Origin: a virus
DNA: 64,000 nucleotides
Virus record (IMG/VR): IMGVR_UViG_3300027865_000007
Direction: 5' to 3' (one strand)
The notes beneath the pieces are model-generated. The model made no database searches. It had not been told where the DNA came from and saw nothing but the letters and a program-made list of their open reading frames with translations. A program made the translations under genes and the position numbers. Shown piece by piece: positions 38,392 through 63,680 of the stretch. Every line of letters begins with the position of its first letter. Positions within the stretch are counted from its first letter, which is position 1.

Positions 38392-39006
38392 ATGAAACCA
38401 ATCTACAAGGAGGACTTCCGTACCATTAGAGCTAACACCTTCAGCGGGGTTAGGGTCAATGATTCTCAGCTAAGCGACGAGCCTACAGACATCTCGGCCT
38501 GGTTTGGAGGAGAGAATATCGGCTGCGTGCAGGAGGTCAACCTACAGATAACCAAGCAAATACTCCCTCCATATATGAGCAACCCAGACCCTAGGACTTT
38601 CAGCAAGGGCCAACAGGCTTTCGCAGGCAGTCTTACCTTCATCAACCTCAACAGAGATCTGGTCGCAGAGAAGCTAAGGGAGGAGATCCTCTACCCAGAC
38701 ATCCCCGCGATCAAAGAGGGAGATCCCTTCCCGCAAATCAAACTTGGTTCGTGCGAGTGTACGACTATCGAGGACTACCACCTAGATCAGTTCCCTCCAT
38801 TCGACATCGTCATAAGCCTAAGCAGCTTCCAAATGGTCATAGCGGGCGCAGAACTTCTCGTCGAGGGTTGGAGTTGCTGCATTGATGGGGTAGAGACAGA
38901 AAGGTCGCTTACCTATCTCGCCAGGAACTTCTTTATGCGCCCAATTCCGAGGGAGACAGAGACCAAGTCCGAAGATCCCTTCAATCTCCTAAAGAAACTG
39001 CTGTAA
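38392..39006 (+). CDS. hypothetical protein ending in conserved C-terminal tail DPFNLLKKLL
   Basis: C-terminus shared with 61455-61829 and 63273-63680. Confidence 0.5.
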   Translation: MKPIYKEDFRTIRANTFSGVRVNDSQLSDEPTDISAWFGGENIGCVQEVNLQITKQILPPYMSNPDPRTFSKGQQAFAGSLTFINLNRDLVAEKLREEILYPDIPAIKEGDPFPQIKLGSCECTTIEDYHLDQFPPFDIVISLSSFQMVIAGAELLVEGWSCCIDGVETERSLTYLARNFFMRPIPRETETKSEDPFNLLKKLL

Positions 39007-39010
39007 CCGA

Positions 39011-39394
39011 ATGCCGACTAAGCTCTACGAACCTTCGTATGTCAACCAGCCGGCAGATGGATCTTACCACGGTCTAGAGAAGGTAATGACTCAGTACTCT
39101 AACGGTACCGGTTTTAGTAAAGAAGACTTCGTCAACCCGCCAACCGATGGAGAGACCCAAAAGCTAACGGCTATGATCACGAAGATCTTCGAAGATCATA
39201 GCAAGGCGATCAATAAGGCGATCACCGACGAGCTCAAAGACTATTCCATCTCTGCCAAGAAGGCTTCGAAGCCGGCAGTAGTAGATCAATCAGGCAATGG
39301 CAACCACGGTGTAATTACCCCAGAAACCAAAAGCCCGCGGACTAGAACTCAGAGAGTCAAAGACCGGATGAAAGAGAAGTTCTTCACCGAATGA
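39011..39394 (+). CDS. hypothetical protein
   Basis: 127-aa ORF. Confidence 0.45.
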   Translation: MPTKLYEPSYVNQPADGSYHGLEKVMTQYSNGTGFSKEDFVNPPTDGETQKLTAMITKIFEDHSKAINKAITDELKDYSISAKKASKPAVVDQSGNGNHGVITPETKSPRTRTQRVKDRMKEKFFTE

Positions 39395-40062
39395 AACCTA
39401 TCTTCATCGAAGCAACGACACTAAGCGACGCATGGTTTCAAGCCCTCGATGCCGTAATGGATCACGGTAGAGTATGGACTGTAGATCACGGTTCCTATAT
39501 AGGACAGGATAGATGGGAGCTAGACTACGTTACGATTCACGTCAAAGACCCGGGAGCAAGACCTCTAATACCAGAGATCCCACCCGGACTAGCAATCCCG
39601 CCGCCGGTGAGCGACGAGTACGTTGAGGATTATCTTCCATACCTGATGACCGACCATAGGGAGCCAGGAGAGCAATACACCTATGGCGAACGCCTGAAGC
39701 CTCAAATGGAAGAGATCATAAGAAGGTATAAGAAGCACGGGTTTGGTTCCAATCAGGAGTGCATTGCCATAGCTAAACCAGAGGACATTATGTTAGATGA
39801 TCCTCCGTGCCTCAGACAGATAGACACCAGGATCTACAAAGACGAATGTCGTGAGGGCCCCGCCACCCTCCACTTCGTCTGCTACTTCAGGAGCTGGGAT
39901 CTATGGGGTGGATTCCCCGCGAACCTAGCAGGGATAAGGCTCGTCCAGGAATATATGGCTCTAGAGATTGGAGTCGAGGCAGGCGAGATGATTGTTGCAT
40001 CTAAAGGACTACATATCTACGACCATGCCTGGGATGTAGCTAAGATCAGAACTGCGAGATAG
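39391..40062 (+). CDS. thymidylate synthase (ThyA)-fold protein, short divergent form (TS or pyrimidine hydroxymethylase candidate)
   Basis: DPPCLRQID (PCH-like nucleophile region) and YFRSWDLWGGFPANLAGIRLVQEYMA (YQRSxD..G.PFNIASY-like). Confidence 0.6.
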   Translation: MKPIFIEATTLSDAWFQALDAVMDHGRVWTVDHGSYIGQDRWELDYVTIHVKDPGARPLIPEIPPGLAIPPPVSDEYVEDYLPYLMTDHREPGEQYTYGERLKPQMEEIIRRYKKHGFGSNQECIAIAKPEDIMLDDPPCLRQIDTRIYKDECREGPATLHFVCYFRSWDLWGGFPANLAGIRLVQEYMALEIGVEAGEMIVASKGLHIYDHAWDVAKIRTAR

Positions 40063-40064
40063 CA

Positions 40065-40253
40065 ATGAGAGAACAGTCAACAAGCCCACAGGAAGGACAA
40101 TGGTACTTCCGCCGGACAACTAAGGAGAAATTCTACGTTGATTTGGTGGACGGCAAGATTACCTACTGCCGGAGACAGGACGGAACCTATCTATGTGTGA
40201 GCACCCAGGAATTTGATGGCGGCTTCTCAAAAGTCGAAACACCCTCGCTGTAA
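40065..40253 (+). CDS. hypothetical protein
   Basis: 62-aa ORF. Confidence 0.3.
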   Translation: MREQSTSPQEGQWYFRRTTKEKFYVDLVDGKITYCRRQDGTYLCVSTQEFDGGFSKVETPSL

Positions 40254-40419
40254 GGGGTGCGGAACAGCCAGGCCACTAGAGGTTTTCTACGATACTCCTG
40301 GAGGCGACATATACCTCTGTTCTAACTGCATCTCAGAGCTACTCTACCGAATGCTAGACGGCTACTACGACGACGTAGGAGAAGTCTACGAGGAGTGGAT
40401 ATATGACAAGAAAGTATAG
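40213..40419 (+). CDS. small zinc-ribbon protein
   Basis: CKGCG ... CSNC. Confidence 0.35.
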   Translation: MMAASQKSKHPRCKGCGTARPLEVFYDTPGGDIYLCSNCISELLYRMLDGYYDDVGEVYEEWIYDKKV

Positions 40420-40744
40420 GGTCGAGTGGCAGGTCGAGTTCGACAGAGACGTCCTCTGCATCAAGATCGTCAGAGAAGACAGCGACAGTAAGAGAGGCAT
40501 TATCCTTCGCGTCCCCGACTCCGCTCTAATAGAGACCGACGAAGACGAGCAGTACGGCAAGCAGACTATCAAATGCTGGGACTACGATGGAGAAGGAGAG
40601 GAAGAGACTGTCATCGGCGGGGATGCAGATATTCTCAAGGACGGCAATATGGAACCTCCAGATCTTGATGGGCTATTCAAGTGGGAGGCACCGAAATCGG
40701 GGATGGAAGAGCTGCTCGCCCATATCCTGAGCAATAAAAAGTAG
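40403..40744 (+). CDS. hypothetical acidic protein
   Basis: 113-aa ORF. Confidence 0.4.
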   Translation: MTRKYRVEWQVEFDRDVLCIKIVREDSDSKRGIILRVPDSALIETDEDEQYGKQTIKCWDYDGEGEEETVIGGDADILKDGNMEPPDLDGLFKWEAPKSGMEELLAHILSNKK

Positions 40745-40777
40745 CAGTAGTTCTCTTTAGTGCTACAGTAATACAAG

Positions 40778-40862
40778 GGAAGGGTGACCGAGTCAGGCCG
40801 ATGGTGCACGCCTGAAGCGTGTGGTCCGAAAGGGCCCGTAGGTTCAAATCCTACTCCTTCCG
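40778..40862 (+). tRNA. class II (long variable arm) serine-type tRNA whose anticodon reads GAA (Phe)
   Basis: Acceptor GGAAGGG/UCCUUCC (as in tRNA-Ser), G73; D-arm ACCG-AGTCAGGCCGA-TGGT; anticodon arm CACGC-CUGAAGC-GUGUG (anticodon 40814-40816 GAA); variable hairpin with GAAA loop; T-arm GTAGG-TTCAAAT-CCTAC. Aligns base-for-base with the tRNA-Ser(GCU) at 42203. Confidence 0.6.
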
Positions 40863-40876
40863 CCGAGAGAAGGTAA

Positions 40877-41239
40877 ATGAAGCATCTGCTAGGAATCCTA
40901 CTTGCTCTAATCATCTCATTCCCAATCGTTTCCTATGCAGAACTAGAACCTCCCCTACCAGAGAGGTTCACCACAATGACCCTTGCCGGTGCCTCAACTT
41001 TTTCTCTAGGCATTGGGCTACTAACTACAGCCCTACTAACTACACAGTGGGAACCAATCGAAGCCTCGGCAGAGATCCTTGGTACAACCTTCATAGGGGT
41101 ACTAGAACCAGACAACCCCGCCGGGCTATGGGTTGTATACGGAATAGCAGGGGCAGCAATCTTAGCTGGGATCATTATTATCGTGATAGACTCCATCTAT
41201 CGGGCACTTAGAAGATGCCGGCGTAGCTCCAATGATTAG
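40877..41239 (+). CDS. membrane protein with signal peptide
   Basis: Signal peptide then two TM segments. Confidence 0.45.
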   Translation: MKHLLGILLALIISFPIVSYAELEPPLPERFTTMTLAGASTFSLGIGLLTTALLTTQWEPIEASAEILGTTFIGVLEPDNPAGLWVVYGIAGAAILAGIIIIVIDSIYRALRRCRRSSND

Positions 41240-41301
41240 AGCGAGGCTTTCGTAAAGCTTAGGTGTTGGTTTGACTCCAACCGCCGGCTCCAGGAGGAAC
41301 A

Positions 41302-41637
41302 ATGCTATCAGTGAAGTTCACCGAGAAAGACTGCGAATATCTCAACACATATGATGCTTTCTCTGCAGACTGGTATGAGGAACTAGCTAGCAAATGTTCC
41401 TGCGCACCCAGAGAGCTGAGAACGCTCGGCCTATTCGACCTAATCGATAGGCTAGACGAGGAGAAAGATTTTCTCGTAGTCCTGCAGTTCAACTCGCTAC
41501 CCGTTAGGCCCTGGTTCGAACCTGAAGGAGGATATGCATCAGTTGGCACCACCAAAACAACCGTCGATAGTCCCGCCGCAACCAAAGAAGAAGCCAAAGA
41601 GAAAGAAGCCCCGAAAGCCAAAGAGGAAAGGCAATGA
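41302..41637 (+). CDS. hypothetical protein
   Basis: 111-aa ORF with KE-rich tail. Confidence 0.4.
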   Translation: MLSVKFTEKDCEYLNTYDAFSADWYEELASKCSCAPRELRTLGLFDLIDRLDEEKDFLVVLQFNSLPVRPWFEPEGGYASVGTTKTTVDSPAATKEEAKEKEAPKAKEERQ

Positions 41638-41665
41638 GAGACAATAAAAGCTGCCTCAACTGCAA

Positions 41666-41902
41666 GTGGTGGCCAGGGAACTGGCCCGACACTATCTTAT
41701 ATCCGGATGGTATGGGGTTGAGCAGGACGAGCTCGTAGAGATCCTGGTGATACACGAGCCCCACGTGAATGTTAGGAGCAACGACGGCAGAGACCTCTGC
41801 TTGCCAAAAAGCATACTGATATCCGTAGCTGAGGAGAAGACTCCCCCAGCACCAAAGAAGAAGAAAGAGGCAAAGCCTGGCCCCAATGGGTTCTATATTT
41901 AG
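41666..41902 (+). CDS. hypothetical protein
   Basis: 78-aa ORF. Confidence 0.35.
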   Translation: MVARELARHYLISGWYGVEQDELVEILVIHEPHVNVRSNDGRDLCLPKSILISVAEEKTPPAPKKKKEAKPGPNGFYI

Positions 41903-41906
41903 ATAA

Positions 41907-41983
41907 GCCCGAGTCGCCTAGCTGGTATGGCGTCAGGTTTCCAACCTGAAATAAGATCGGTTCGAGTCCGTTCTCGGGTTCCA
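41907..41983 (+). tRNA. tRNA-Gly (anticodon UCC), CCA encoded
   Basis: Acceptor GCCCGAG/CUCGGGU (G1-U72), D-arm GCC-AGCUGGUA-GGC, anticodon arm UCAGG-UUUCCAA-CCUGA (anticodon 41940-41942), T-loop TTCGAGT (one U-U mismatch in stem), CCA at 41981-41983. Confidence 0.7.
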
Positions 41984-41995
41984 AGGAGAAGAGAG

Positions 41996-42196: not shown

Positions 42197-42202
42197 GCCC
42201 AT

Positions 42203-42291: not shown

Positions 42292-42303
42292 CTAGGAGTA
42301 AAG

Positions 42304-43187: not shown

Positions 43188-43189
43188 GG

Positions 43190-43500: not shown

Positions 43501-43551
43501 GCTAAGTACTTGCAATTACTAGAAGAAGAGAAAGCAGAGATCAGAAGAGTG

Positions 43552-43560: not shown

Positions 43561-43561
43561 T

Positions 43562-43846
43562 ATGGCTCAAGCACTGACTGAAGAAGAGATTCTAGGGACG
43601 TATATAGAGTTGCAGAAGAGAGTGTGGAATCTGATCGAGAGTCCTATCGGTCAGCTCCAGTACAAACTACGTCGACTCGACCCGAAAGACACGCCACCAC
43701 TGGATATCAGAAATGTGGGGAAGATAGTCGGCAAGATGGACGCTCTCAAAATTCTTCTACACTCCCTCGAAACAGACTTAGGTGTCGAGATAATCGAGCT
43801 GGAAAAAAGGGCAAGCAAGAGAAGGAACAAAGAGGAAAACGGATGA
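43562..43846 (+). CDS. hypothetical protein
   Basis: 94-aa ORF. Confidence 0.4.
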   Translation: MAQALTEEEILGTYIELQKRVWNLIESPIGQLQYKLRRLDPKDTPPLDIRNVGKIVGKMDALKILLHSLETDLGVEIIELEKRASKRRNKEENG

Positions 43847-44037
43847 AGCACGAAATCGAAATCACAGTCCTCCCAGGAGGCAAGCTCGAGACAGAGGTAA
43901 AGGGCGTATCAGGCCCAAACTGCGAAGGTCTGTCCGTGTGGCTTGAGCAGCTCGGTGAGGTTCTAGAGCACAAGAGGACCGTCCCTGCAAAGAAGAAGAC
44001 CAAGGAGAAGGTCGGCATCAAGCAGAAGGTCGGTTAG
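43843..44037 (+). CDS. hypothetical protein
   Basis: ATGA overlap with upstream gene. Confidence 0.4.
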   Translation: MKHEIEITVLPGGKLETEVKGVSGPNCEGLSVWLEQLGEVLEHKRTVPAKKKTKEKVGIKQKVG

Positions 44038-44046
44038 GAGAGAACG

Positions 44047-44463
44047 ATGAGCGCATATAGACTAATCGAGTGCGAGATCTACGAGGGAGAGCACATCATT
44101 GAGGCTCTCGTAGAGATGGGGATTCCCCGCTCTTGCATCGAGGTTCACGATACCCCTCAGGCCCTTCAGGGCTACACCGGTGACACCCGGAGTACAAAGG
44201 GAAACATCATCGTCCGGAGGAAGCACGTCAACAAGCACCTCTCCGGAGGATCCAGCAACGACCTCGGGTTCGAGCTCAGGGACGGCAAGTACGCTGCCCA
44301 CGTCTCAAACTACGATCAGGGCTGGTGGAACCGAAAGCAGGACCGCTTTATGCAGGTTGCTGCAGCTTCCCAGGCGATCAAGGCTGCGAAAAAGCGCGGC
44401 TACCGCGTGACCAAGACTGAAGTAGAGGGTAAGATCAAGATCAAGCTCAAGAAGTCCTACTAG
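44047..44463 (+). CDS. hypothetical protein
   Basis: 138-aa ORF. Confidence 0.45.
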   Translation: MSAYRLIECEIYEGEHIIEALVEMGIPRSCIEVHDTPQALQGYTGDTRSTKGNIIVRRKHVNKHLSGGSSNDLGFELRDGKYAAHVSNYDQGWWNRKQDRFMQVAAASQAIKAAKKRGYRVTKTEVEGKIKIKLKKSY

Positions 44464-44475
44464 TAGAGGAAGAAG

Positions 44476-46107
44476 ATGATCGAAGAACTCATTGCCTGCG
44501 ACGAGGCCAGGATCCCTGTGATCTGGTTCGTTACCCACGAAGAGTTGAGAGCAGAGGCCGAGATTGTCCGGTACACTAAGGACGATATGAAAGGCGAGCT
44601 CTGGATCTGGTCCCTAACCTCTAACAAGGGACAGGCCGGGTGGGAACCACCTCAGGGAACCATAAAGAAGAACCTGAAGGTGCCGTTCATCCCGGAGGAG
44701 GATCAGGCCGAGGTCTCTGTTGCCATCAAGACCTTCATCGATTTCGTAGCAGCAGAGGAAGAGGCGGCCGAAGCAGACGACCGCGAGGCAAAGAAGTACG
44801 TTGCTCTCATTCGAGACCCCCACGTCTTCTTGGACGAGGATATGTCCTTCAGGAGGATGCTCCGGGACGCGGCCAGAGAGCTGAGGGACACTGACTCGAC
44901 TATCGTCTGCGTTTCGCCGATCGATATGCTTCCCACGGATCTGAAGACCGACGTAGTGAAGATCCACGCTGGCCTGCCCAAGCAGGAGACCATCGAGAAG
45001 ATGATGAAGAACCAGCTGGAGGACTACGAAATTCCCATCACGGCGAAGGCGCTTAGTAAGCTGTCCGGAGCCTGTTGCGGAATGACCCTCCAGCAGTCCG
45101 CAGATACCCTAGCAAAGAGCCTTACCAAGTTCGGTGAGATCAACATCCAGTTCATCTCCCGGGCTAAGACAGAGGCAATCTCTAAGGTCTCAGGGCTAAG
45201 GTACGAGGGAAAGACCCCTTCGATGGATGAGGTCGGAGGCCTAGCCGGCATCAAGGAGTGGATGCTAGAGAGAGCCGGAGGATTCTCCCAAGAGGCCAGA
45301 GACTTCGGCCTACCGTCTCCAAGAGGCGTTCTCTGCCTTGGTATTCCGGGCACCGGAAAGAGCCTCTTCTCAAAGGCCGTGGCAGCGATGCTCGACCTCC
45401 CGCTTATCGCCCTGACCACCCCGGATCTGAAGGGTGGCATCGTAGGTGAGACGGAGGAGAACGTCAGGAATGCATTCGACACGATCAACACCATCGGCAA
45501 CTGCGTGGTCAGGATCGACGAGATGGAGAAGGGCCTTCCGTCCTCGGAGGGAAGGAATCTAGACGCTGGTGCCAGCGACGCTGTCCTCGGTGGGCTCTTG
45601 AAGTGGATGCAGGACAGAGAGAGCGGAGCATTCCTCGTGGCTACGGCCAACGATATCTCCGCAATGAGGCCAGAGCTCCTCAGGAAGGGAAGGTTCGACG
45701 CAATCTTTTTCGTTGATCTCCCAGATCTCGAAGAGAGGAAAGAGATCTTCCTGATCCACCTGGCAAAGAGGAACAGGAAGCTCAGCAGCCAGGACATCGC
45801 GACAGTCTCGATGGAGACAAAAGGATACTCCGGCGCTGAGATTGAGGCATCCGTCATCGATGGCCTCTGGAAGGCCTGGAGCGACGGCAAGAGGAAGATG
45901 ACTACGGACGACATCCTGTCTTGCATCAGGATGGATGTCCCCCTCAGCCAGACGATGGCCGAGCACATCAAGGCTCTGAGAGAGTGGGCCGACAAGAGGG
46001 CAAGGTCTGCCTCCAAGACCACGGCGGATATGGCCGGGCTTAGCAAGGATAAGAAGTCCACGAAGAAGCCTGGCAGACGGAAGCTGAAGCTCGAGAAGGC
46101 GAATTAG
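44476..46107 (+). CDS. AAA+ ATPase (classic clade) with about 260-aa N-terminal domain
   Basis: Walker A GIPGTGKS, Walker B VVRIDEME, sensor ATAN, arginine finger region GRFD. Confidence 0.8.
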   Translation: MIEELIACDEARIPVIWFVTHEELRAEAEIVRYTKDDMKGELWIWSLTSNKGQAGWEPPQGTIKKNLKVPFIPEEDQAEVSVAIKTFIDFVAAEEEAAEADDREAKKYVALIRDPHVFLDEDMSFRRMLRDAARELRDTDSTIVCVSPIDMLPTDLKTDVVKIHAGLPKQETIEKMMKNQLEDYEIPITAKALSKLSGACCGMTLQQSADTLAKSLTKFGEINIQFISRAKTEAISKVSGLRYEGKTPSMDEVGGLAGIKEWMLERAGGFSQEARDFGLPSPRGVLCLGIPGTGKSLFSKAVAAMLDLPLIALTTPDLKGGIVGETEENVRNAFDTINTIGNCVVRIDEMEKGLPSSEGRNLDAGASDAVLGGLLKWMQDRESGAFLVATANDISAMRPELLRKGRFDAIFFVDLPDLEERKEIFLIHLAKRNRKLSSQDIATVSMETKGYSGAEIEASVIDGLWKAWSDGKRKMTTDDILSCIRMDVPLSQTMAEHIKALREWADKRARSASKTTADMAGLSKDKKSTKKPGRRKLKLEKAN

Positions 46108-47864: not shown

Positions 47865-48120
47865 TGCCTACCCGTGGGAAGTTCGAGTACTTCTAACTGA
47901 GGAAGCTCTCAAGAGAGATGCAGCAGTAATAGACATCCTCGACGAGCTTGTATCTACAAGTCTCGCCTACCATTGTCCATACTGTGGGAAGAGAAAACCG
48001 TTCGAGACCTGTCGGTCTTGCAAATATCTAGAGAGCTGTATTGAAGGCGGCGTGCTGGGATGCCCCGGCTGCCTGAATTGCGAAGGTATAAGTGGAAAAC
48101 TCCGAGCTGTTGAGGACTAA
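47851..48120 (+). CDS. small Cys-rich zinc-binding protein
   Basis: CPYC ... CRSC ... CPGCLNC. Confidence 0.35.
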   Translation: MKESDAYPWEVRVLLTEEALKRDAAVIDILDELVSTSLAYHCPYCGKRKPFETCRSCKYLESCIEGGVLGCPGCLNCEGISGKLRAVED

Positions 48121-49726
48121 AGCCCTCGCAGGACTAGAAGAGAGAGGGCTCTCAGGTAAGCAAGAGTATGTAGACCGCCTAGAGTATGAACTCGAAACCA
48201 TTGAGAAGCTAGGATTCACGACCTACTTCCTTGTGATGTGCGACATCGTGAGGTTTGCCAGAGAGAACGACATCCTCTATGGCCCCGGTCGCGGGAGCGG
48301 AGCTGGAAGTCTACTGAACTACTGCCTAAAGATCACGCTCATCGACCCACTAAAGTACGGGCTCCACTTCGAGAGGTTCCTGAACCCCAATAGGGTATCT
48401 CCACCAGACATTGACTGGGACACCGCCGATCGAGGTAGAATTATTGAGTATCTCGAGGGAAAGTACGGTAAGGACAGAGTCGCTCGCGTGGGTACAGTCA
48501 ACTTCCTGAGAACGAAGAGCGCTATCAGAGACATCGGTAGAGTCCTTGAGAAAGAGTTCAAGTTCATAGACAACCTAGCTGAGCTTGTACCTCCGCCCGT
48601 CGCCGGCCTCTGGGATAGTTTTGACCGGGAGGCTGAGGTCGAGCCAGAACTCCTCTCGTCTAGGTACCAAGAGATCATAGACCCCACTAGGAAGCTCTGG
48701 GGGGTACTCAGGAGCTATGGTACACACGCAGGAGGGGTTGCTATAGCCCCCATACCAATCAGCGAGATGGCGCCCCTCTACAAGGATAAGGACGGTAATC
48801 CAGTCTCTCAGTTCGACTGGAGAGACCTCGAGAAGGCAGGGCTACTCAAGTTCGATATCCTAGGGCTAAACACCTTGGAGGTAATCCAGCTGACCCTGAA
48901 ATATCTGAAGGTCGACGCGATAGACCTTGATCTAGAGAGTCTCGAGGACGGAGACCCAGACGCATACAAGATGATTTGCAGCGGCGATCTTGATGGGGTA
49001 TTCCAGCTCGGCGGGAGTGAGTCAATCAAGCAGCTCACAGTCTCTATGTCTCCCAAATGCATTGAGGATCTCGCCCTTGTGACGAGTCTCTACCGCCCAG
49101 GCCCTCTATCTAGTGGAATGGTCGATGGCGCCGTGAGGGTCAAGCAAGGGAAGGCTACTCCTAAGTACATCGACCCCATACTTGCCCCAATCTTGGACGT
49201 GACGCACGGCGTTCCTGTCTTCCAGGAACAGATTATGAATATCTGCACTGACCTATGTGGGTATACCCTTCCCGAAGCAGACAAGATGCGGAAGATTGTA
49301 GGTAAGAAGCTCAAGAAAGAGATGCCCAAACAGAAGAAGATGTTCGTGGAAGGAGCCATTGCAAATGGGGTACCTCGGAGCGGAGCCGAAAAACTTTTCG
49401 GACAGATAGAGGATTACGCTCAGTACCTGTTCAACAAGACACACGCAGTCGCTTACTCCGTAATAACGTACTGGACGGCATACCTAAAGGCCCATCATCC
49501 AATAGCTTTCTACGCTAGCCTCCTCGCTTGCGAGAAACATCCAGACAAGAGAACGCAGTACGCGAGCACGATCAAAACGGCGGGGATAGACATTCTTCCA
49601 CCCGATGTAAATCTATCGGGCTTCTATCACCAGCCAGAGGGAAACGCAATCAGGTTTGGCCTCAGCCACATCAAAGGGATGGCCACGGCTACCGCTCAAG
49701 AGATCGTAGACCTTAGAAATGACTAG
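48092..49726 (+). CDS. dnaE: DNA polymerase III alpha (DnaE) fragment 2: palm/thumb/fingers core
   Basis: GFTTYFLVMCDIV ... GPGRGSGAGSLLNYCL ... FERFLNP ... PDIDWD and later blocks; starts exactly where piece 1 ends in DnaE alignment. Confidence 0.9.
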   Translation: MENSELLRTKALAGLEERGLSGKQEYVDRLEYELETIEKLGFTTYFLVMCDIVRFARENDILYGPGRGSGAGSLLNYCLKITLIDPLKYGLHFERFLNPNRVSPPDIDWDTADRGRIIEYLEGKYGKDRVARVGTVNFLRTKSAIRDIGRVLEKEFKFIDNLAELVPPPVAGLWDSFDREAEVEPELLSSRYQEIIDPTRKLWGVLRSYGTHAGGVAIAPIPISEMAPLYKDKDGNPVSQFDWRDLEKAGLLKFDILGLNTLEVIQLTLKYLKVDAIDLDLESLEDGDPDAYKMICSGDLDGVFQLGGSESIKQLTVSMSPKCIEDLALVTSLYRPGPLSSGMVDGAVRVKQGKATPKYIDPILAPILDVTHGVPVFQEQIMNICTDLCGYTLPEADKMRKIVGKKLKKEMPKQKKMFVEGAIANGVPRSGAEKLFGQIEDYAQYLFNKTHAVAYSVITYWTAYLKAHHPIAFYASLLACEKHPDKRTQYASTIKTAGIDILPPDVNLSGFYHQPEGNAIRFGLSHIKGMATATAQEIVDLRND

Positions 49727-49803: not shown

Positions 49804-50889
49804 ATGACAATTTCCTCGATCAGGGACATCGTCGAAAGAACTTCTGCTAATGCCAAAGCCCTTGAGTGCTTAGGGAAGGCGGGAGCCTTCAACAACCTAG
49901 AGGACGGGCTAAACGAGCTAGAGGCAGCCGAGTACGGTCGGGAGATGGTAGTCTACCTCCGCGATCTAGGGAAGTTCAAGGAGCGTTCTGCTAAGCACGC
50001 TGAGTCTCTCCATCAGAAGGAAGAGAAGTTCCGAGATAAGGTAGAGGCCCGCCGCGTTCGAATGGAAGAGAAGGATGCCAAGTACCAGAAGAAGCTAACC
50101 GAGTACGAGGCCCGGCTAGCCGAGGTACAGGTAAAGAATGCAGCGAGAGGCGATAAGAAACCCCTAAAGGAACCCGTAAAACCACTACCACCGAAGCCTC
50201 TGAAAGGCGTTGAGTATCCAAAGCCTTCGAAGGTTCCAACAGAACCACCAGAACCACCGAGACCTAGGATTGCCCTCTCACAGCGGGAGAGAGTCCGCCT
50301 CCAGAGAGAGATGCTCTACATCTATCTCACAGGCCATCCCCTCGACGAGGCCCTGCCCGAGAATGGACTCACTCCAATTGGAGATCTAGCCCTGCTAGTT
50401 TCTCCCGACGGCGAAGAGGTTCCTAAGAAAAAGAGAAAGAAGATAGTCGTAACAATTCGTGGCGTGCTGCTATCACATAAGGTCACGAATACTCGAAGCA
50501 AAAAGCTTATGGCCAGACTCCGTCTCGAGGACAAGACAGGTAGCATAGAGGTAGTAGTCTTCCCTGCCCTCTATGACTCCCTAAAGGGCCTCCTAACCGA
50601 CGGTGAAATATATAAAGTGACAGGAGAGGTCGACACGACAAAGAATGTTGGTGACGACGGAGAAGAGCGCTCACATACCCAAGTAAAGGGTAAGAAAGTT
50701 AGAGCTGTCAGGATTGGCAGCGATAAGGAGTGGGATATCAACTACCCGCTCCTGCGGGGAGGACTTAGGATTCTCCCAGGACCAGCGCAGAAATCGAAAG
50801 GACTTGCTGCGAGTACCATAATGCAGCAGGCCCGAAAGACTATCGAGGCAAGGATTGAAGCACTTCGACAGAGTTCAACGCTACTGTGA
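49804..50889 (+). CDS. dnaE: DNA polymerase III alpha (DnaE) fragment 3: C-terminal HhH/OB-fold region
   Basis: KALECLGKAGAFNNL (HhH region) and OB-fold VVTIRGVLLSHKV...LRLEDKTGSIEVVVFPALYDSL. Separated from piece 2 by a TAG stop and a 78-nt spacer in a different frame, with its own RBS. Confidence 0.8.
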   Translation: MTISSIRDIVERTSANAKALECLGKAGAFNNLEDGLNELEAAEYGREMVVYLRDLGKFKERSAKHAESLHQKEEKFRDKVEARRVRMEEKDAKYQKKLTEYEARLAEVQVKNAARGDKKPLKEPVKPLPPKPLKGVEYPKPSKVPTEPPEPPRPRIALSQRERVRLQREMLYIYLTGHPLDEALPENGLTPIGDLALLVSPDGEEVPKKKRKKIVVTIRGVLLSHKVTNTRSKKLMARLRLEDKTGSIEVVVFPALYDSLKGLLTDGEIYKVTGEVDTTKNVGDDGEERSHTQVKGKKVRAVRIGSDKEWDINYPLLRGGLRILPGPAQKSKGLAASTIMQQARKTIEARIEALRQSSTLL

Positions 50890-54650: not shown

Positions 54651-55271
54651 ATGACAAAACGTAGAATTCTACTCGATATGGACGACGTTCTCGCCCGCTG
54701 CGTCGACTACTGGCTCGAACAACTAAACAAGACCCACAACCTAAGCCTCTGCAAGGCAGACATATCCAACTGGAATATGTCCAAGAACCCAGAGGTCCGC
54801 GCTACAGGGCTTACCTACGACGAAATCTTTGCCCCGATGGGTAAAAAAGGATTCTTCTTCGAATTGCCTGTTATGGAGGGCGCCCAAGAGGGTGTCCAGG
54901 ATCTCATCGATAACTTCGGGGAAGTAGTGATCGTTACTAGCCTTCCTAGCGATATCTACCGCCCAGGCGAAGTGACTCAGGAAAAGCTTGACTGGTTGCG
55001 AAAATACTTCCCCTACTTCAGCAAGACAAGAAACATAGTAATGACGAAGAGAAAGGGCCTTGTGAAAGGCGACTTGCTGATTGACGATGCTCCGCATAAC
55101 ATCTTGGAGTATCCTGGTAAGACTGTCGTCTTCGACCAGCCCTACAATCAGGGGGTCGCGGCGACAGCAAGAGTAGCGAACCAACCAGGGTCTCCAGCCT
55201 GGGAGAGAGTGCTAGAGACCTGCCTAGATATCTTTGCGAAGGAGACTGATGAGCGTCCGTACCCAGTTTGA
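54651..55271 (+). CDS. 5'(3')-deoxyribonucleotidase (HAD superfamily, NT5C-like)
   Basis: N-terminal ILLDMDDVLA (DxD nucleophile motif) and LLIDDAPHN. Confidence 0.55.
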   Translation: MTKRRILLDMDDVLARCVDYWLEQLNKTHNLSLCKADISNWNMSKNPEVRATGLTYDEIFAPMGKKGFFFELPVMEGAQEGVQDLIDNFGEVVIVTSLPSDIYRPGEVTQEKLDWLRKYFPYFSKTRNIVMTKRKGLVKGDLLIDDAPHNILEYPGKTVVFDQPYNQGVAATARVANQPGSPAWERVLETCLDIFAKETDERPYPV

Positions 55272-58252: not shown

Positions 58253-58266
58253 ACTATAGTAGAGCA

Positions 58267-59247
58267 ATGATCAAGATCAAGACCGCCCTCATCATCGCGG
58301 GCGTACTGGGAGTCCTAGGTCTAATCCCAGCCGCCGCAATGTTCTGGAAGATGTCCAAGCTGGAGGCAATGAACCTTCAACTCTCGGGACAAATGGATAT
58401 CCAGGGCAAGCACCTCACCAAATCCCTGCTGAGAGCCTCAACAGAGATGGCTACACACGAGGAACTATCTGAGTTTGCGGCGGAATCACGCCTTGACATA
58501 GAACGAGTCCGAGCAGATCTAGCCTCCTTGGGAGCAAGACTCGAGGCGGTAGCTTCCACAAAAGCTTCAACGACGACAGTTCATCACGACCGCCAACCAT
58601 CAGACTCAAGCACTCCCTCAGAGACGAAAGTTCCTATCTGTCCGGAAGATGGTAGAGCAATCGACGTACACGGGTACACAAAGAGAATAGAAACCAGACA
58701 GATAAGAGATTCAAACGGAATGAGAGTTGCCGACGTCTCCTTCGAGGCAGCCGAAGAAGCCCCCTGGTCAGACTCTGTGCACGGAATTACATTCCTAATC
58801 AACAGCACAGTCGGAAGGACCGATGACGGCAGACTTGTCCTGCACACAGAGCTCCTCGCTACAAGCGAAGCAGAGCCAGACCAGACCTTTAGAATCGAAG
58901 GAATAGAGTCCCGGATGCTACAAGTCCCAGAAGAGGCCAGGTTCAGTTTCTGGGATCCTCACATCCTACTAGCCATCAATTTTGGGATCACAGTCCGCCC
59001 AGCTCTTGACCTTAGCGCATCGATGAATGTTCTGTTTACGGTGATGTCCTACGGAGATTTCTCGTTCGTCGGCATTGGCGTAGGGTATGACGCCTTCCAG
59101 AACTCTTTTATCGCATCATTCCAACCGTTTATGTATAACATCGGCGGGCCGATCCCTGTTCTATCTGACCTTCACGTTTACCCGTTCGTATCAGCAGACC
59201 ACAATGCTACTATCTCAGTTGGTGCCGGGCTGGGGACGAGACTCTAA
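58267..59247 (+). CDS. membrane-anchored protein (N-terminal TM)
   Basis: ALIIAGVLGVLGLIPAAAMFW, then coiled coil and beta-rich C-terminal region. Confidence 0.5.
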   Translation: MIKIKTALIIAGVLGVLGLIPAAAMFWKMSKLEAMNLQLSGQMDIQGKHLTKSLLRASTEMATHEELSEFAAESRLDIERVRADLASLGARLEAVASTKASTTTVHHDRQPSDSSTPSETKVPICPEDGRAIDVHGYTKRIETRQIRDSNGMRVADVSFEAAEEAPWSDSVHGITFLINSTVGRTDDGRLVLHTELLATSEAEPDQTFRIEGIESRMLQVPEEARFSFWDPHILLAINFGITVRPALDLSASMNVLFTVMSYGDFSFVGIGVGYDAFQNSFIASFQPFMYNIGGPIPVLSDLHVYPFVSADHNATISVGAGLGTRL

Positions 59248-59408
59248 AAGGACCTGGAATGCCCTCTTAGAGGCCTAAACCAGCCCTCAGACAGCCAGGA
59301 AAGACTTCTATCGCACCCGAACACACCTAGCAAGACAGACCGTCCTGGGGACGAAACAGAGCAATTTTAGACCCTCTAGTAGGGTTGATGATAGGAACAA
59401 GGCTATAG

Positions 59409-59636
59409 ATGACTACAGAACTTTACCGGTGCCAAGCGTGCGGAGATTCCCAGGTCGACGAGACTATCCCACGGCAACTTTGTTGGAGGAGTTGGAGGAC
59501 AGGAGCCTACAATAGGCAGAGGGACTGGAAGCGTACCCTCTTCACCTGCCACAAGTGCCAGGGCAAGTCAGACAAGGAAGTCGTCCAGCTCTATATGGAG
59601 TTGGAAAAAGCCAAGTACAGTGAGCCAATTCTTTAG
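59409..59636 (+). CDS. zinc-ribbon protein
   Basis: CQACG ... CHKCQG. Confidence 0.4.
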   Translation: MTTELYRCQACGDSQVDETIPRQLCWRSWRTGAYNRQRDWKRTLFTCHKCQGKSDKEVVQLYMELEKAKYSEPIL

Positions 59637-59684
59637 CTCCAGACTACCAACCGCAGATAAACTAGAGGTAGAGTAAGGATAAAT

Positions 59685-59981
59685 ATGCCACCAATCAAGA
59701 AAAAGATCGACGTATTAAGGAAAGTCCAGGCGAGGGTCTCTAAACCAGTCCCGTTCTGCTCGGAAGGAAAGAGAATAACCCTAAGCTCATACGTAAGGGT
59801 CATCTGTCCAAGGTCTACACACGAGGGGACTACCGGGCTCGTATGCGATACAAGAGAGAAGCCGCCGGACGGGAAGGACGTCAAGGTAGCTTTCCTCGAG
59901 CAGACAGGCAAGGAATACACCGTAGGACTAAAAGTGATATGGATGAGTAGTAAAAGCCTGGCAGTAAGAAAGCGGCTATGA
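59685..59981 (+). CDS. hypothetical protein
   Basis: 98-aa ORF. Confidence 0.4.
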   Translation: MPPIKKKIDVLRKVQARVSKPVPFCSEGKRITLSSYVRVICPRSTHEGTTGLVCDTREKPPDGKDVKVAFLEQTGKEYTVGLKVIWMSSKSLAVRKRL

Positions 59982-60235
59982 CAGATAAGAACAAACCGGA
60001 GCTAACCCAAGAAGAAGAATCCTACCTAAAGACATACAAGGCTCTTCAAGACTTTGTATACCTAGCCAAGAGGACTATCTACGCCGCGAGCAAAGAACAG
60101 AGAGAAGCCTCTGATGCCCACGCCAAAATAGGAGATTTAGCTGGGGCACGCATACATAAAGCCAGAATTCAGGGGCTTGATCTTGCAGCTAAACTCCTCG
60201 GCAAAGAGCTAAGCAGCTGGCAAGAGGAAGAATAA
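59978..60235 (+). CDS. hypothetical protein
   Basis: 85-aa ORF. Confidence 0.4.
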   Translation: MTDKNKPELTQEEESYLKTYKALQDFVYLAKRTIYAASKEQREASDAHAKIGDLAGARIHKARIQGLDLAAKLLGKELSSWQEEE

Positions 60236-60252
60236 ACCAGAGTAGGTTCCAT

Positions 60253-60618
60253 ATGAAAGTCGGCGACCAGGTAATGCTATCTGACTGGGCTCAGCAGGGT
60301 TCCTACTACCAGAATCTGACGGCCAATTGGAAACTACCGTGGGTGATCACGCACATAGATTACTACCCGTGCACCGGAGGGGATGGCTCCGAGGTATTCC
60401 TAGAGACCCTGAATAACAGAGCAGGTCATATGGCAGGGTCGTCGCTAGTCCCATATAAGGAAGGACATATCTATCCTCCTTGGCCGCCCAGCCGAGAGTT
60501 TCCCGTCCTGAATGGATATAAGGGCGTGACTCCGCCAGACATTCCTGAAGGTGCAACTGACGATGAGGTCAATGAGATCCTCACGAAGTGGATAACGGAA
60601 GCTACTCCGAATGAGTGA
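60253..60618 (+). CDS. hypothetical protein
   Basis: 121-aa ORF. Confidence 0.4.
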   Translation: MKVGDQVMLSDWAQQGSYYQNLTANWKLPWVITHIDYYPCTGGDGSEVFLETLNNRAGHMAGSSLVPYKEGHIYPPWPPSREFPVLNGYKGVTPPDIPEGATDDEVNEILTKWITEATPNE

Positions 60619-60838
60619 TAGAACATACAACGGTATAGAACGGCGAGGGCTCTTGCTGACCCTCGCCTATATTACCTTTGGAGCACATACAGACTCACTA
60701 AGGTGTAGAGGTCTATTCAATGCCATCGCGGAAGAGATTGGAGAAAAAGAGATGGCTTCATACCTCAAAGAACTCAAAGACCTCTTCGGCAATACGGCCG
60801 AGGCGGCCCACAAGGGACTAAGATGGTCTAAGCTATGA
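60611..60838 (+). CDS. hypothetical protein
   Basis: 75-aa ORF. Confidence 0.35.
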   Translation: MSDRTYNGIERRGLLLTLAYITFGAHTDSLRCRGLFNAIAEEIGEKEMASYLKELKDLFGNTAEAAHKGLRWSKL

Positions 60839-61056
60839 CATTCCTCTGGTTCGTAATGCTTGAACCGCCGCAGGGAAGAAGCTACATCTTCCACATAGGC
60901 GCAGAGTATGGCGACGATGCAGTCGAGTACGCAAAGATCTGGCTACTAGAGGAAGGCCTGGGAGAGCTCCTCAGGTACAATCTAAACCCTCACGTCGACC
61001 GCATTGGAACAACAAAAGAAATAGGAATCATAACCATCAGACTAGGTAGGGAGTAA
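60835..61056 (+). CDS. hypothetical protein
   Basis: 73-aa ORF. Confidence 0.35.
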   Translation: MTFLWFVMLEPPQGRSYIFHIGAEYGDDAVEYAKIWLLEEGLGELLRYNLNPHVDRIGTTKEIGIITIRLGRE

Positions 61057-61268
61057 TGATGACTGAAGACGAGCTAGCAGAGTACATCGCTGCGCACCCA
61101 AAAGCCCAAGAGAAACTCTCCAAGCTAGTAGTAGACTGTGCTATGGAGTACGCTGAGCTAGTAAACAAAGGGGGCTGGGCAGACCAGCTTCTCTACCTAG
61201 CTGATTCATACGGCCAACCCGACGCCGACGAGTTTGTGAAAGAGGCCATAGGAATAGACAATGACTGA
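61056..61268 (+). CDS. hypothetical protein
   Basis: 70-aa ORF. Confidence 0.35.
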   Translation: MMTEDELAEYIAAHPKAQEKLSKLVVDCAMEYAELVNKGGWADQLLYLADSYGQPDADEFVKEAIGIDND

Positions 61269-61458
61269 ACAAACAGACAAATTCATAGCTAAGCACGCGC
61301 TGGTTGGTATGGCAGAAATGCTTGCCCATAACATTAGAACCCTGCCGGGCGCGATCTCGCCATTCGAAAGAAAGCTCCTCATAGATAAGACGATCAAGCT
61401 CCACGAGTACATTGGGCACGCCCTAGAGGCAGCGAAAAAGATGGCAGACGCTCGATGA
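61261..61458 (+). CDS. hypothetical protein
   Basis: 65-aa ORF. Confidence 0.35.
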   Translation: MTEQTDKFIAKHALVGMAEMLAHNIRTLPGAISPFERKLLIDKTIKLHEYIGHALEAAKKMADAR

Positions 61459-61829
61459 GCATCATCAACGTCCACTACAAGAAGGACATTCCAAACCGCA
61501 CGGGGACTATTCGATTCTATTCCGACGGCAAACGAATCGACATCGATAGCATAGCTATAACCCAGAAGAAACTCCCGGGCCCTGGGCCCGTGCTAACTAT
61601 CGAGCGTACTGTCAGGGTTTTCGGCCACCAACCACGTACAGGTAGCGACCTAACGCTAAGAGCTACAAATGAGGACGGACAGATAGCGGAGCTAAAGATT
61701 CCAGGGCTCCGCAGACATTCTAATCTCCCGCCCGGCACGTTCTACTGTGATAACTTCCCCTGGTGGCAATGGATAACCCCAGAACCAATAGAGAAAGATC
61801 CATTCGACCTACTAAAGAAACTACTATAG
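61455..61829 (+). CDS. hypothetical protein with WWxW motif and C-terminal tail DPFDLLKKLL
   Basis: FPWWQWITPEPIEKDPFDLLKKLL C-terminus; paralogue of 62743-63273 and 63273-63680. Confidence 0.5.
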   Translation: MSIINVHYKKDIPNRTGTIRFYSDGKRIDIDSIAITQKKLPGPGPVLTIERTVRVFGHQPRTGSDLTLRATNEDGQIAELKIPGLRRHSNLPPGTFYCDNFPWWQWITPEPIEKDPFDLLKKLL

Positions 61830-61848
61830 CTCTAATGTCTTTCCCTAA

Positions 61849-62213
61849 GCCTGGCGTAGTAGTCATTCAGGAGACTCCCCTATTCCCCACGAATATGACT
61901 CTAGTATAGAGATACCTCAGGTTATCTGTACGATAGATGCACTTCTTGGAGATGTAGACCTTAGGGTTGATATCCCCGACGGCGGGAAGGAAGAACTCGA
62001 GTCATACTTCCGCGAGACACTTCATACATTCCTCGCTCTCCCAATCACGCCCGCACTAAAAGAAAAAGTAGAGCTAACAGTAAAAGCCGTCCTATGTAGC
62101 CTAGTAAAAGAAGGCAGGCTATATAAGAGATGGGACGGAGATAAGATGGTGTGGAAGATAATCCCAAAGAAGTTCTCCATAGACGAGTTTGTAAAGCTCT
62201 GCCGCGATCTCTG
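61849..62213 (+). pseudogene. coding-like ORF (121 codons) with no canonical in-frame start; C-terminus paralogous to 62743-63273 (possible frameshifted/pseudogenised or non-canonically initiated paralogue)
   Basis: Stop-free from 61849 to TGA at 62211-62213; ends ...MVWKIIPKKFSIDEFVKLCRDL vs ...VQWWQWQKEEKKSLTLDEFISLCRELEEK. First in-frame ATG is only 23 codons before the stop. Confidence 0.25.
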
Positions 62214-62224
62214 AGAGAAACCGT

Positions 62225-62743
62225 ATGAAACAAATGAACTATCTGTCAGCTACGACGATTGTAGTCAGCACACCCACCACAGCCATCTCCATAACGAAGG
62301 TTGCGGTAGAGACCTGTAGGAAAATGTCACCCATCTATACGATGGGCCACCAGCCACCCCTCCCACAAGGCAACCAGTTCCAGGGAAGCATCCTTCTACC
62401 AGAGGTATGCGAGCCAGAGGACATTAGCTTAGAGCCCTTCAGTCTTACGGTTAGCTGCAAGCTGGGTAAAGGTATGTGCAAGGAAGAGATTGCTAGCCTG
62501 AGTGGGGAAAGGATCCTCCACCTTCCCAACTGCCGCGGCCTCACAGACAACAACGAAGAGCTCATTCTAAACGATCGACAGTTCATCTTCTACACACCTC
62601 CCAAAGAACCCGTCGCTCACTACGCGATAGAACAACTCGCACAGATCTTCCCTGAGGGTCTAATCCATCGCTCTAGATATGACGGTGAGCCAAGCTTCGG
62701 ACTAACATTTGGTATACCCTGGACTAAGCAGAAAAAGGAATAA
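62225..62743 (+). CDS. hypothetical protein
   Basis: 172-aa ORF. Confidence 0.45.
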   Translation: MKQMNYLSATTIVVSTPTTAISITKVAVETCRKMSPIYTMGHQPPLPQGNQFQGSILLPEVCEPEDISLEPFSLTVSCKLGKGMCKEEIASLSGERILHLPNCRGLTDNNEELILNDRQFIFYTPPKEPVAHYAIEQLAQIFPEGLIHRSRYDGEPSFGLTFGIPWTKQKKE

Positions 62744-63273
62744 TGGCAAACGTCCTATCCAACCTCGTGCAATTTGGCCCTCCTGTCAAAGCCCTCGAAG
62801 AAGAGATCAAAGCACTTGAAAAAGAGACGCCTACAACCAGCACCTTCAAGACACCAGCCCACAGCCTCGGTGGGGGCGTCGAGTTTTCAATCGACGGAGA
62901 GCCCTGTGGGATTACAACCTGTCAGCTCACGATCACAAAGCAGAAAAAACCCTCATACCAGTACATAATGGGAGACCCGAAGCCAACCAAAATCCTTCCG
63001 GGCAAAACAGGCATCACACTCTCGCTCTATGGGAAGATGCCAGACACAATCCCTTTCGACCTGACACTGGAGGCCAGGAACGGGTACGGTGACCTAGCCA
63101 AAGCAACGATCTTCGGAATCGAGATTATCTCGGAAGGGTGGCCTACGACAGGCAAGGGCCAGTACACAGGCATCGCGAAAAATGTACAGTGGTGGCAGTG
63201 GCAAAAGGAAGAGAAGAAATCTCTAACCCTAGATGAGTTTATAAGTCTCTGTAGAGAGCTAGAGGAGAAGTAA
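62743..63273 (+). CDS. hypothetical protein (WWQW family paralogue, no KKLL tail)
   Basis: VQWWQWQKEEKK...DEFISLCRELEEK. Confidence 0.45.
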   Translation: MANVLSNLVQFGPPVKALEEEIKALEKETPTTSTFKTPAHSLGGGVEFSIDGEPCGITTCQLTITKQKKPSYQYIMGDPKPTKILPGKTGITLSLYGKMPDTIPFDLTLEARNGYGDLAKATIFGIEIISEGWPTTGKGQYTGIAKNVQWWQWQKEEKKSLTLDEFISLCRELEEK

Positions 63274-63680
63274 TGGCATTCCTACCATTTGTAATCCCAC
63301 CCAAGCCAAGCGGAGGGCTATCCTTTACCGCTGGGCCTGGAAGAAGGATTTACGTGAATAAGAAGCCCTCCAAGATTGCCCACATAGGGATTGGGTATAC
63401 TCTTCCGACCTATATAGCTATGATAATTGATCCTAATGATCCCGTCCCGCCGGACGGAGCTACTATAAGGTTCGAAGCCGATGATGGGGCCTGCCAAATG
63501 GCCGTCTTGGAGGCGCACGACATCAAAGTCAATGTTACTCTTATCACCTCCACCCAGGTCGACTGGTGGAAGTGGGAACCGTCATCAATTGGTATCGCTG
63601 TCCTAAGAAATGTCAGGGTAGCACCAGCTGACGACCCGAAAGATAGAGATCCTTTCGATCTACTAAAGAAGCTGGCCTAA
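63273..63680 (+). CDS. hypothetical protein with WWKW motif and C-terminal tail DPFDLLKKLA
   Basis: VDWWKWEPSS ... DRDPFDLLKKLA. Confidence 0.5.
   Translation: MAFLPFVIPPKPSGGLSFTAGPGRRIYVNKKPSKIAHIGIGYTLPTYIAMIIDPNDPVPPDGATIRFEADDGACQMAVLEAHDIKVNVTLITSTQVDWWKWEPSSIGIAVLRNVRVAPADDPKDRDPFDLLKKLA

Follow-up and report, generated by a model that had tools for sequence, protein, structure and literature searches.

The window analysed in this study is the whole 64,000-nucleotide stretch of viral DNA of IMG/VR record IMGVR_UViG_3300027865_000007, and the subject is a short peptide with which several of its proteins end. The proteins g063 (38392-39006), g104 (61455-61829) and g107 (63273-63680) terminate in the same 10-residue sequence, DPF[DN]LLKKL[LA], and their C-termini are exactly as the original prediction described them. 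This tail is a new, sharply conserved mark on proteins of an uncultured large-phage lineage without close relatives, and with its variants it marks about eight genes, falls into two classes and recurs in three further phage genomes. We see about an even chance that the tail is a portable C-terminal docking helix for one common partner, because it is near-invariant on diverged bodies, is kept in orthologues, occurs on non-homologous small proteins and is absent from canonical tail tubes.

Sequence and Selection of the C-Terminal Tail

The genes of the window that carry the tail, and their relatives there, all lie on the plus strand. The last residues of g063 are SEDPFNLLKKLL (tail DPFNLLKKLL, 38974-39003, TAA stop), those of g104 are EKDPFDLLKKLL (tail DPFDLLKKLL, 61797-61826, TAG stop), and those of g107 are DRDPFDLLKKLA (tail DPFDLLKKLA, 63648-63677, TAA stop). 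A six-frame scan of the window found DPFxLL at these three places only. A relaxed pattern, hydrophobic-x-hydrophobic-hydrophobic-[KR]-[KRE]-hydrophobic inside the final 16 residues, was applied to all frames of the window and related loci, and it matched 9 of the 767 complete open reading frames (ORFs), compared with 0.43 expected by shuffling. All nine matches were tail carriers, and the sole new one was g050.

Copies of the 30-nt tail segment show 77-80% identity to one another, and the 60 nt upstream and 40 nt downstream of them are at the random level (17-32% identity). The three window tails are written with differing codons (CCC/CCA/CCT, CTC/CTA, AAA/AAG and CTG/CTA). When five exact tails were compared, there were 11, 6 and 49 differences at codon positions 1, 2 and 3, respectively, and the codon differences were synonymous in 41 cases and non-synonymous in 11. 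The codon-position pattern and the unalignable flanks therefore indicate that selection acts on the peptide. The tail does not come from recent DNA copying, and it is not merely the end of a recently duplicated gene family, the outcome against which the original prediction had been set: the tails differ in codons, their flanks are random, and other occurrences were found. The same data bear on the idea that a DNA or RNA element at the 3' ends of the genes (a terminator, promoter or recombination site) is what is conserved. The nucleotide identity of the tail segments would agree with such an element. The third-position bias, the excess of synonymous differences and the fixed frame and stop position speak against it, as do the tailed orthologues (GC 0.39-0.44), which keep the same peptide with different codons, and no excess of terminator- or promoter-like sites was seen in 59000-64000. 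Because of the codon-position pattern this explanation is effectively refuted, and we give it practically no weight.

The tail is better conserved by far than any part of the bodies and can be written as [acidic or basic residue]-D-P-F-x-L-L-K-K-L-Phi-COOH. Its final position is variable (L, A, S, W or G), and the carriers end in KLL, KLA, KLS, KLW or LLG. Before the tail stands a linker of 8-12 residues, rich in Pro, Glu, Asp and Lys and acidic next to the tail, which follows the last beta-strand. The hydrophobic moment of the tail is 0.55-0.62, and its net side-chain charge is 0 to +1. The tail region has no sequence match in PDB among chains of 20 or more residues, and it fits none of the clamp-binding, encapsulin cargo, MIM1 or ssrA consensus sequences.

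Tail-Tube Fold among the Carriers

The protein g063 (204 aa) carries a full tail-tube/Hcp-fold domain. It matches PHROG 9206 (E=1e-10) and KLEB27-3 gp026 (blastp E=1e-23), and tblastn with it found the tail tube protein and tube paralogues of the Bacillus jumbo myophages of the 0305phi8-36 group. Its AlphaFold2 model, built with 68 homologues (predicted local distance difference test, pLDDT, 79), is a beta-sandwich with a long hairpin (strands 41-58 and 71-86), in which a poorly ordered linker leads to a terminal helix at 196-203. A Foldseek search of PDB with this model gave a probability of 1.0 to the tubes of phage 812, PVC, AFP, diffocin and lambda gpV and also to Hcp.

The gene g106 (62743..63273, 176 aa) is a clear compact member of the same family, which aligned with the tube profile at 97% probability (hhalign E=3e-11), matched the tube hidden Markov model (HMM) at E=2e-13 and matched KLEB27-3 gp026 at E=9e-9 (blastp). 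Two further proteins were marginal against the tube profile, each over half of the domain: g104 (124 aa; hhalign E=3e-4, 39% probability) and g105 (62225..62743, 172 aa; hhalign E=2e-4, 46% probability; tube HMM E=0.0018). By blastp, g104 matches g106 (E=1e-5) and g107 (E=2e-4). The 135-aa g107 alone gave no significant match to the tube profile. It can nevertheless be aligned with g104 and g106 from end to end, and G17, F21, G25, P45, T52, D65, A70 and WWxW are the same in all three. An AlphaFold2 model of g104 from a three-sequence alignment reached a pLDDT of 41 and was unusable. As judged from these comparisons, g104, g105 and g107 are diverged small paralogues of the tube/Hcp-fold family. 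The bodies of the three named carriers had been described as otherwise different, and this is only half of the picture: g063, g104 and g107 are diverged tube/Hcp paralogues, because profile and full-length alignments join them, and the tail is also found on the non-homologous small proteins P0002 and P0003 described below. No significant similarity to the tube family was found for g050, for g104b (the gene between g104 and g105) or for P0003.

The WWxW motif that had been reported for g104, g107 and g106 is present in all three (WWQW at 61761-61772, WWKW at 63564-63575 and WWQW at 63190-63201, respectively). The set as listed lacked g051, and a scan of the window found the motif on the plus strand in these four genes only. 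It follows immediately on the last conserved strand, at the place of the "AR-x-I-x-PW" of most family members, whose PW it elaborates, and we do not consider it a second signal because it is part of the C-terminal edge of the tube fold.

Both g063 and g106 are homologous to the tubes of the 0305phi8-36-like jumbo myophages (gp140/gp141; KLEB27-3 gp026-028; PHROG 9206; Phage_tube_2; Hcp/gpV), with which g063 also shares its predicted fold; several paralogues per genome are usual in that group, as in the window. The canonical members lie next to sheath genes in three tandem copies and have polar, unconserved tails, whereas the tube-like genes of the window lie among nucleotide-metabolism and replication genes, several of them are much shorter, and they have a conserved terminal helix. 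The canonical sheath-tube arrangement was seen in three loci (L006, L007 and L038), and the Bacillus phages are alike. In L038, a 190-kb IMG/VR contig, a sheath-sized gene and three tandem tube paralogues are accompanied by a 2137-aa gene of tape-measure size, and none of its tube proteins has the tail. The genes g063 and g104-g107 are not in a tail module, as the window gave no match to a gene for a sheath, baseplate or tape measure, and this position suggests that the fold has been put to another use.

Tail Carriers outside the Window

Matches that consist of the tail alone escape HMMER, as a bare tail scores an E value of 20-500 at the size of the database, and we therefore relied on DNA pattern scans. 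Back-translated patterns anchored at the stop were run against IMG/VR, against the JGI metagenome contigs and against 185,579 species (GTDB), each represented by a single genome. In IMG/VR, the scans for DPF[DN]LLKKL and for DPFxLLKKLx before a stop gave chance matches only, and the scans of the GTDB genomes gave zero matches and then 15 chance matches. The JGI metagenome contigs contained two genuine tail matches (loci L008 and L010), and a search with a five-sequence profile of the tail region returned the proteins of these two loci only. These proteins, P0002 and P0003, have 70 and 72 aa, are acidic (isoelectric point ~4.2) and end in EEEKDPFDLLKKLS or RNRDPFDLLKKLL, with the terminal form DPFDLLKKL[LS]. 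The gene order of both loci is alike: a HAD-type phosphatase, a helical protein of ~100 aa and the tailed protein. P0002 and P0003 are 43% identical to each other and have only the last 14 residues in common with the tube-like family; profile comparison found no similarity to that family beyond the tail, and neither they nor their neighbours matched Pfam.

The protein of L008 is encoded on L012, a 47.9-kb contig. It occurs in the same three samples (ERZ27250324, ERZ27250393 and SRR8436406) as pieces of the window; L012 and the window each have a GC content near 0.52, and in each the genes lie on one strand. Probably L012 belongs to the genome of the window, as a further part of it, or to that of a co-resident relative.

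HMMER with g063 against 1.84 billion representative proteins found 154 homologues, none of them above ~46% identity. Among the 150 homologues listed, three have the tail, namely g063 itself, P0009 (ending in NKDLFYLLKKLLG) and P0052 (ending in SDNPFYLLRKLW), and P0020 has a doubtful one (GPFPTLREFLT). The tails of these orthologues from two other phages read DLFYLLKKLLG and NPFYLLRKLW; with them included, F, LL, K and L never vary, and the bodies are 30-35% identical. P0052 is the positional orthologue of g063: its locus L017 (GC 0.43) has a SIR2 gene, the tailed tube gene, a small ORF and a ThyA-like gene that is 64% identical to g065, and in the window g063 is flanked by the metallophosphoesterase g062 on one side and the ThyA-like g065 on the other. 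The locus of P0009, L016 (GC 0.39), has a SIR2 gene, the tailed tube gene, a g075-like gene, a small ORF and a further tube paralogue without the tail. The search for more proteins with this ending, which had been proposed together with the original prediction, was thus run and led to g050 in the window, the proteins of L008 and L010, P0009 and P0052.

Another clade of the tube family (P0041, P0047, P0080 and P0142) has its own C-terminal peptide, HTGQIYN[EP]YTDTW[TS][WF][LM]. Conserved terminal peptides may thus recur in this tube family.

Tail Classes and TAG Stop Codons

The tails fall into two classes with the common skeleton D-x-F-x-x-L-x-[KR]-x-L. Class A is the tail of g063, g104 and g107. 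Class B has the consensus DEF[IV]xLCR[DE]L, and it is found on g106 (LDEFISLCRELEEK, 63229-63270) and on g104b (61835..62214), with looser versions on g051 and g105. The 396 bp between g104 and g105 seemed non-coding and are in fact the frameshifted gene g104b, with a 7-nt deletion near 61873. L039, a strain variant that matches window 58797-63067 at 99.8% identity, shows one indel, 7 extra bases near 61873; there (3039-3425, sample ERZ27250393) g104b is intact, has 128 aa and ends in VWKIIPKKFSIDEFVKLCRDL. The window copy, with the class-B tail SIDEFVKLCRDL, is either a real pseudogene of this strain or an assembly error. The C-terminus of g104b matches the end of g106 (WWQWQKEEKKSLTLDEFISLCRELEEK), and its body is not tube-like and has no tube HMM match. 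The probable tube-like paralogue g105, which has the N-terminal motif CRKMSPIYTMG, carries a diverged helix, HYAIEQLAQIF, at the position of the tail, followed by 30 further residues. A DNA scan for class-B tails returned internal helices of unrelated phage proteins only. No database record is exactly identical to g106 or g107.

The remaining carrier, g050 (30601..30915, 104 aa, ending in ERDPMALLKKALG), lies directly 3' of the ribonucleotide reductase gene. It has a non-tube body and a degenerate class-A tail, DPMALLKKALG (30880-30912), before a TAG stop, and its residues 66-101 match residues 107-133 of g107 (E=0.01). It is in frame with g051 (30919..31095, 58 aa), which has WWSW at 31006-31017, a Pro-rich linker and a B-like terminal amphipathic helix, REFLELFIELLKETAR.

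Two carriers, g104 and g050, end at TAG; g063, g107 and all tail carriers at other loci end at TAA or TGA. The window encodes a tRNA with the anticodon CUA (14071-14146, plus strand), an amber suppressor that ARAGORN reports as tRNA-Pyl and that scores 46 bits with the Rfam tRNA model. Read-through of TAG would add two residues to g104 and would fuse g050 in frame to g051. TAG is the commonest stop in the window, and recoding of TAG in this region was rejected because it ends 46 of the 108 genes, including many well-delimited and conserved ones. As a separate observation, the CUA tRNA together with common TAG stops may point to stage-specific read-through or recoding of genes elsewhere in the genome.

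Docking Model and Alternative Explanations

The docking or addressing signal of the original prediction survives as a conserved functional C-terminal element, in view of the selection on the peptide, the orthologues and the unrelated carriers, and its premise of unrelated bodies is partly true. In our model of a docking helix, D-P would cap a helix of ~2.5 turns, in which F3, L6 and L9/L10 would form one hydrophobic face and K7-K8 would lie on the other. The hydrophobic face may insert into a groove on a common phage-encoded (or host) partner, and all carriers would thereby be tethered to the same site. The tube fold normally makes hexameric rings with the C-terminus on the outside; rings of the tailed proteins would present six copies of the tail, and binding would be multivalent. 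The tail helix is probably ancestral to the clade, near-invariant in class A and drifted in class B and g105. The small non-tube carriers (P0002, P0003 and g050) may bind in this groove too and act as adaptors, competitors or co-assembling factors. We speculate that the receptor belongs to the tube-fold assembly itself or to an outer layer that surrounds it, and the tail would then be an assembly latch; the AAA+ ATPase g078, a capsid or MVP-type shell, or a host hub are alternative candidates.

Clamp-binding tails dock T4 gp43, gp33 and gp55 on gp45, and the bacterial beta-clamp motif is QL[SD]LF; the consensus of clamp-binding motifs, at or near a terminus, is QL[SD]LF or [ST]LDFLF. Like the tail, these are short hydrophobic and acidic C-terminal peptides on otherwise different phage proteins, one of them small and acidic, which meet at one hub, and the core PF[DN]LL shares the hydrophobic-polar-hydrophobic-hydrophobic pattern of L[SD]LF. 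Unlike the clamp motif, the tail has no Gln (the orthologues have PFYLL or LFYLL) and goes on with the four conserved residues KKL-Phi. Unlike clamp binders, its carriers are tube-fold and small acidic proteins, neither DNA enzymes nor transcription factors, and no match to DNA_pol3_beta or to gp45-like proteins was found in the window.

Several points weigh against the docking helix. No binding partner of the tail was found. Most carriers are paralogous, so the recurrence of the tail is partly inheritance and not independent acquisition, and rings of the short paralogues are hypothetical, given the poor model of g104. Class B is not distinctive alone, because similar internal helices occur in unrelated phage proteins. 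The tail of g050 is degenerate and is terminal only if TAG is read as a stop, and the contig of P0003 is assigned to the same genome by co-occurrence only.

The paralogy of g063 and g104-g107 also agrees with another explanation, that the tail is a structural C-terminal arm of one tube-fold clade (for example, a latch to the neighbouring subunit or ring) that was inherited by duplication, with the small non-tube carriers as truncated or rearranged derivatives of the same family. The other clade with a terminal peptide of its own fits this, and by inspection the W-rich acidic stretch and hydrophobic strand of P0003 look loosely like the end of g107. We nevertheless hold such an arm to be somewhat unlikely, as P0002, P0003 and g050 have no similarity to the tube family beyond the tail, the tail is conserved far above the bodies, and the canonical virion tubes of the family lack it. 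It is decidedly unlikely that the tail is a tag read by the AAA+ protein g078 (44476-46107), possibly feeding the ClpP-family protein g016 (8672-9301), for timed unfolding, disassembly or degradation. The closest known parallels are the MIM1 helices of ESCRT-III, which dock on the MIT domain of Vps4, and the N-terminal helix of VipB, which docks on ClpV: there too, an AAA+ protein reads a short amphipathic helix that a flexible linker joins to the end of paralogous, polymer-forming subunits, and the window encodes a Cdc48/PAN-type AAA+. The AAA module of g078 is most like the D2 of Cdc48/VAT/PAN and is joined to a unique N-terminal region of ~250 aa, g016 is ClpP-like, the carriers have a polymer-forming fold, and their tails stand at a near-constant distance from the free C-terminus. 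However, only AAA and AAA-lid domains were detected in g078, with no MIT-like or known peptide-binding domain, and no link between g078 and the tail was seen. The tail also departs from the MIM1 consensus (D/E)xxLxxRLxxL(K/R), and its variable last residue does not fit ssrA/LAA-type degrons, whose terminal LAA-like residues are read by ClpX.

The original prediction suggested a cargo-addressing signal into the capsid or a proteinaceous compartment, here the shell of the MVP-like g001, and we now regard this as very unlikely. In encapsulin systems, short C-terminal peptides on flexible linkers of unrelated carriers load the cargo, as the tail might; g001 has MVP_shoulder and Vault_3 domains, and the ClpP-family protease has weak scores against head-maturation protease models. 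But the encapsulin cargo-loading core is a GSL-type motif, e.g., LTVGSLRR, which the tail lacks, the tail is predicted to be helical, and no HK97-fold shell gene lies nearby. No capsid, portal or encapsulin gene was found near any carrier, no co-variation or adjacency with g001 was seen, and the known vault cargo relies on a ~160-aa domain instead of a peptide. This analysis gave no connection of the tail with the MVP-like protein, with the ClpP-like protease or with a capsid. Slightly less credit still is due to a membrane-targeting amphipathic helix that would bring ring-shaped carriers to the host membrane. The anchors of MinD and FtsA are likewise terminal amphipathic helices of ~10 residues after a linker, the hydrophobic moment of the tail is as high as theirs, and the avidity of oligomers would apply. 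Such anchors have a charge of +3 in MinD and FtsA, the tail is not cationic, and its linkers are acidic. Lipid-binding helices mainly conserve amphipathicity and not sequence, whereas the tail, including D-P and K-K, is near-invariant across diverged carriers. A membrane anchor is thus unlikely because the tail has no positive charge and is highly sequence-constrained.

Going further than the docking helix, one may speculate about a new phage targeting system with the tail as its address label, in which one helix recruits exapted tube/Hcp rings, no longer parts of a tail, and small acidic proteins to an intracellular structure or hub built by the phage. We consider this proposal unlikely; candidate hubs would be the MVP-like shell, a replication or nucleotide-synthesis factory, or the Cdc48-like AAA+ machine.

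Genome Context

The window comes from a large uncultured phage and forms a one-strand block of genes for replication, repair and nucleotide metabolism. The replication and repair genes encode a 1510-aa ribonucleotide reductase, RecA, UDG, DNA ligase, a DnaE split into PHP, core and OB parts, and a primase-helicase. Genes of nucleotide metabolism encode ThyA-like, dCMP deaminase, NT5C and MazZ-like proteins, and there are three or four metallophosphoesterases. Thg1, RNA ligase, RlaP, PTH2, a Whirly-type single-stranded DNA (ssDNA)-binding protein, SpoVG, ClpP, two trypsin-like proteases, the Cdc48/PAN-type AAA+ ATPase and the MVP-like protein are also encoded. Pfam and PHROG matching detected no capsid, portal, sheath, baseplate, clamp, encapsulin or TPR-type gene in the window. 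IMG/VR searches with g092 and g063 found no related loci, cultured phages had no megablast match to a 24-kb portion of the window, and tblastn of the primase-helicase and DnaE found distant relatives only, with no close cultured relative.

Several of these genes are unusual in themselves. The DNA polymerase III alpha subunit is encoded in separate ORFs (35941-36849, 36869-37753, 48092-49726 and 49804-50889), in the order PHP domain, HNH endonuclease gene and, 11 kb on, the core and the OB-fold C-terminal part. The ribonucleotide reductase (26087-30619, plus strand) is far longer than usual, and two putative inteins were recognised in it by eye as Cys-initiated inserts. The nucleotide-pool genes, namely a MazZ-like dATP/dGTP diphosphohydrolase domain (33238-33597), dCMP deaminase (4887-5423), a divergent ThyA-like protein (39391-40062) and the 5'-deoxynucleotidase NT5C (54651-55271), may together hint at a modified base in the phage DNA. 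A set for RNA and tRNA repair consists of an RNA ligase (2028-3404), a Thg1-like tRNA-His guanylyltransferase (10511-11305), the peptidyl-tRNA hydrolase PTH2 (12985-13341) and an RlaP nucleotidyltransferase (17450-18682). The Whirly-family ssDNA-binding protein (E=9e-19) and the SpoVG homologue are at 23179-23685 and 22348-22677. The two trypsin-like serine proteases (9335-10126 and 19556-20494) are paralogous (blastp E=2e-18) and have hydrophobic, signal-peptide-like N-termini. A conserved-looking trio at 43624-46107 (plus strand), DUF2997, DUF1257 and the Cdc48/PAN-type AAA+, lies in one frame with TAG stops between its members. The ORF of the MVP homologue g001 (44-1933, plus strand; MVP_shoulder E=8.5e-23, Vault_3 repeat) probably has its start upstream, beyond the edge of the window; so far, two gut phages are the only reported sources of viral MVPs (bioRxiv 10.1101/2023.11.10.566534). 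L012 has three tandem paralogues at 6877-8497 (202, 170 and 167 aa) with the C-terminal motif L[KR]KC[LI].G.[DN][KR]W.D, and the one at 6877-7485 has no family match.

In both relatives with a tailed tube-like gene, SIR2 lies directly upstream of it (L016 88-789 and L017 3-368). Other NAD-related genes are NAMPT and NUDIX on L012 (251-3830) and an isochorismatase/nicotinamidase-like gene in the window (18651-19175). Studies have shown that SIR2-type defences sense tail tube proteins (PMC10981675; PMC11087589), and bacterial DSR2 does so and depletes NAD+ (PMC10981675), which makes the investment of this lineage in NAD metabolism worth noting. Given the SIR2 genes next to the orthologues and NAMPT and NUDIX on L012, we considered that the tube-like proteins might be decoys for SIR2-type defences; the decoy idea leaves the tail unexplained.

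Conclusions

Shared terminal peptides wire many proteins to one hub in other systems, as do clamp-binding tails, SSB tails, cargo-loading peptides and MIM helices. For the tail described in this study, the identity of the partner would show what about eight genes do that otherwise defy interpretation. Should the hub prove to be a compartment or an unfoldase, the tail could serve in engineering as a compact tag, and the targeting system, if true, would mean that a large phage from outside the known phage-nucleus lineage sorts its proteins by a peptide code.

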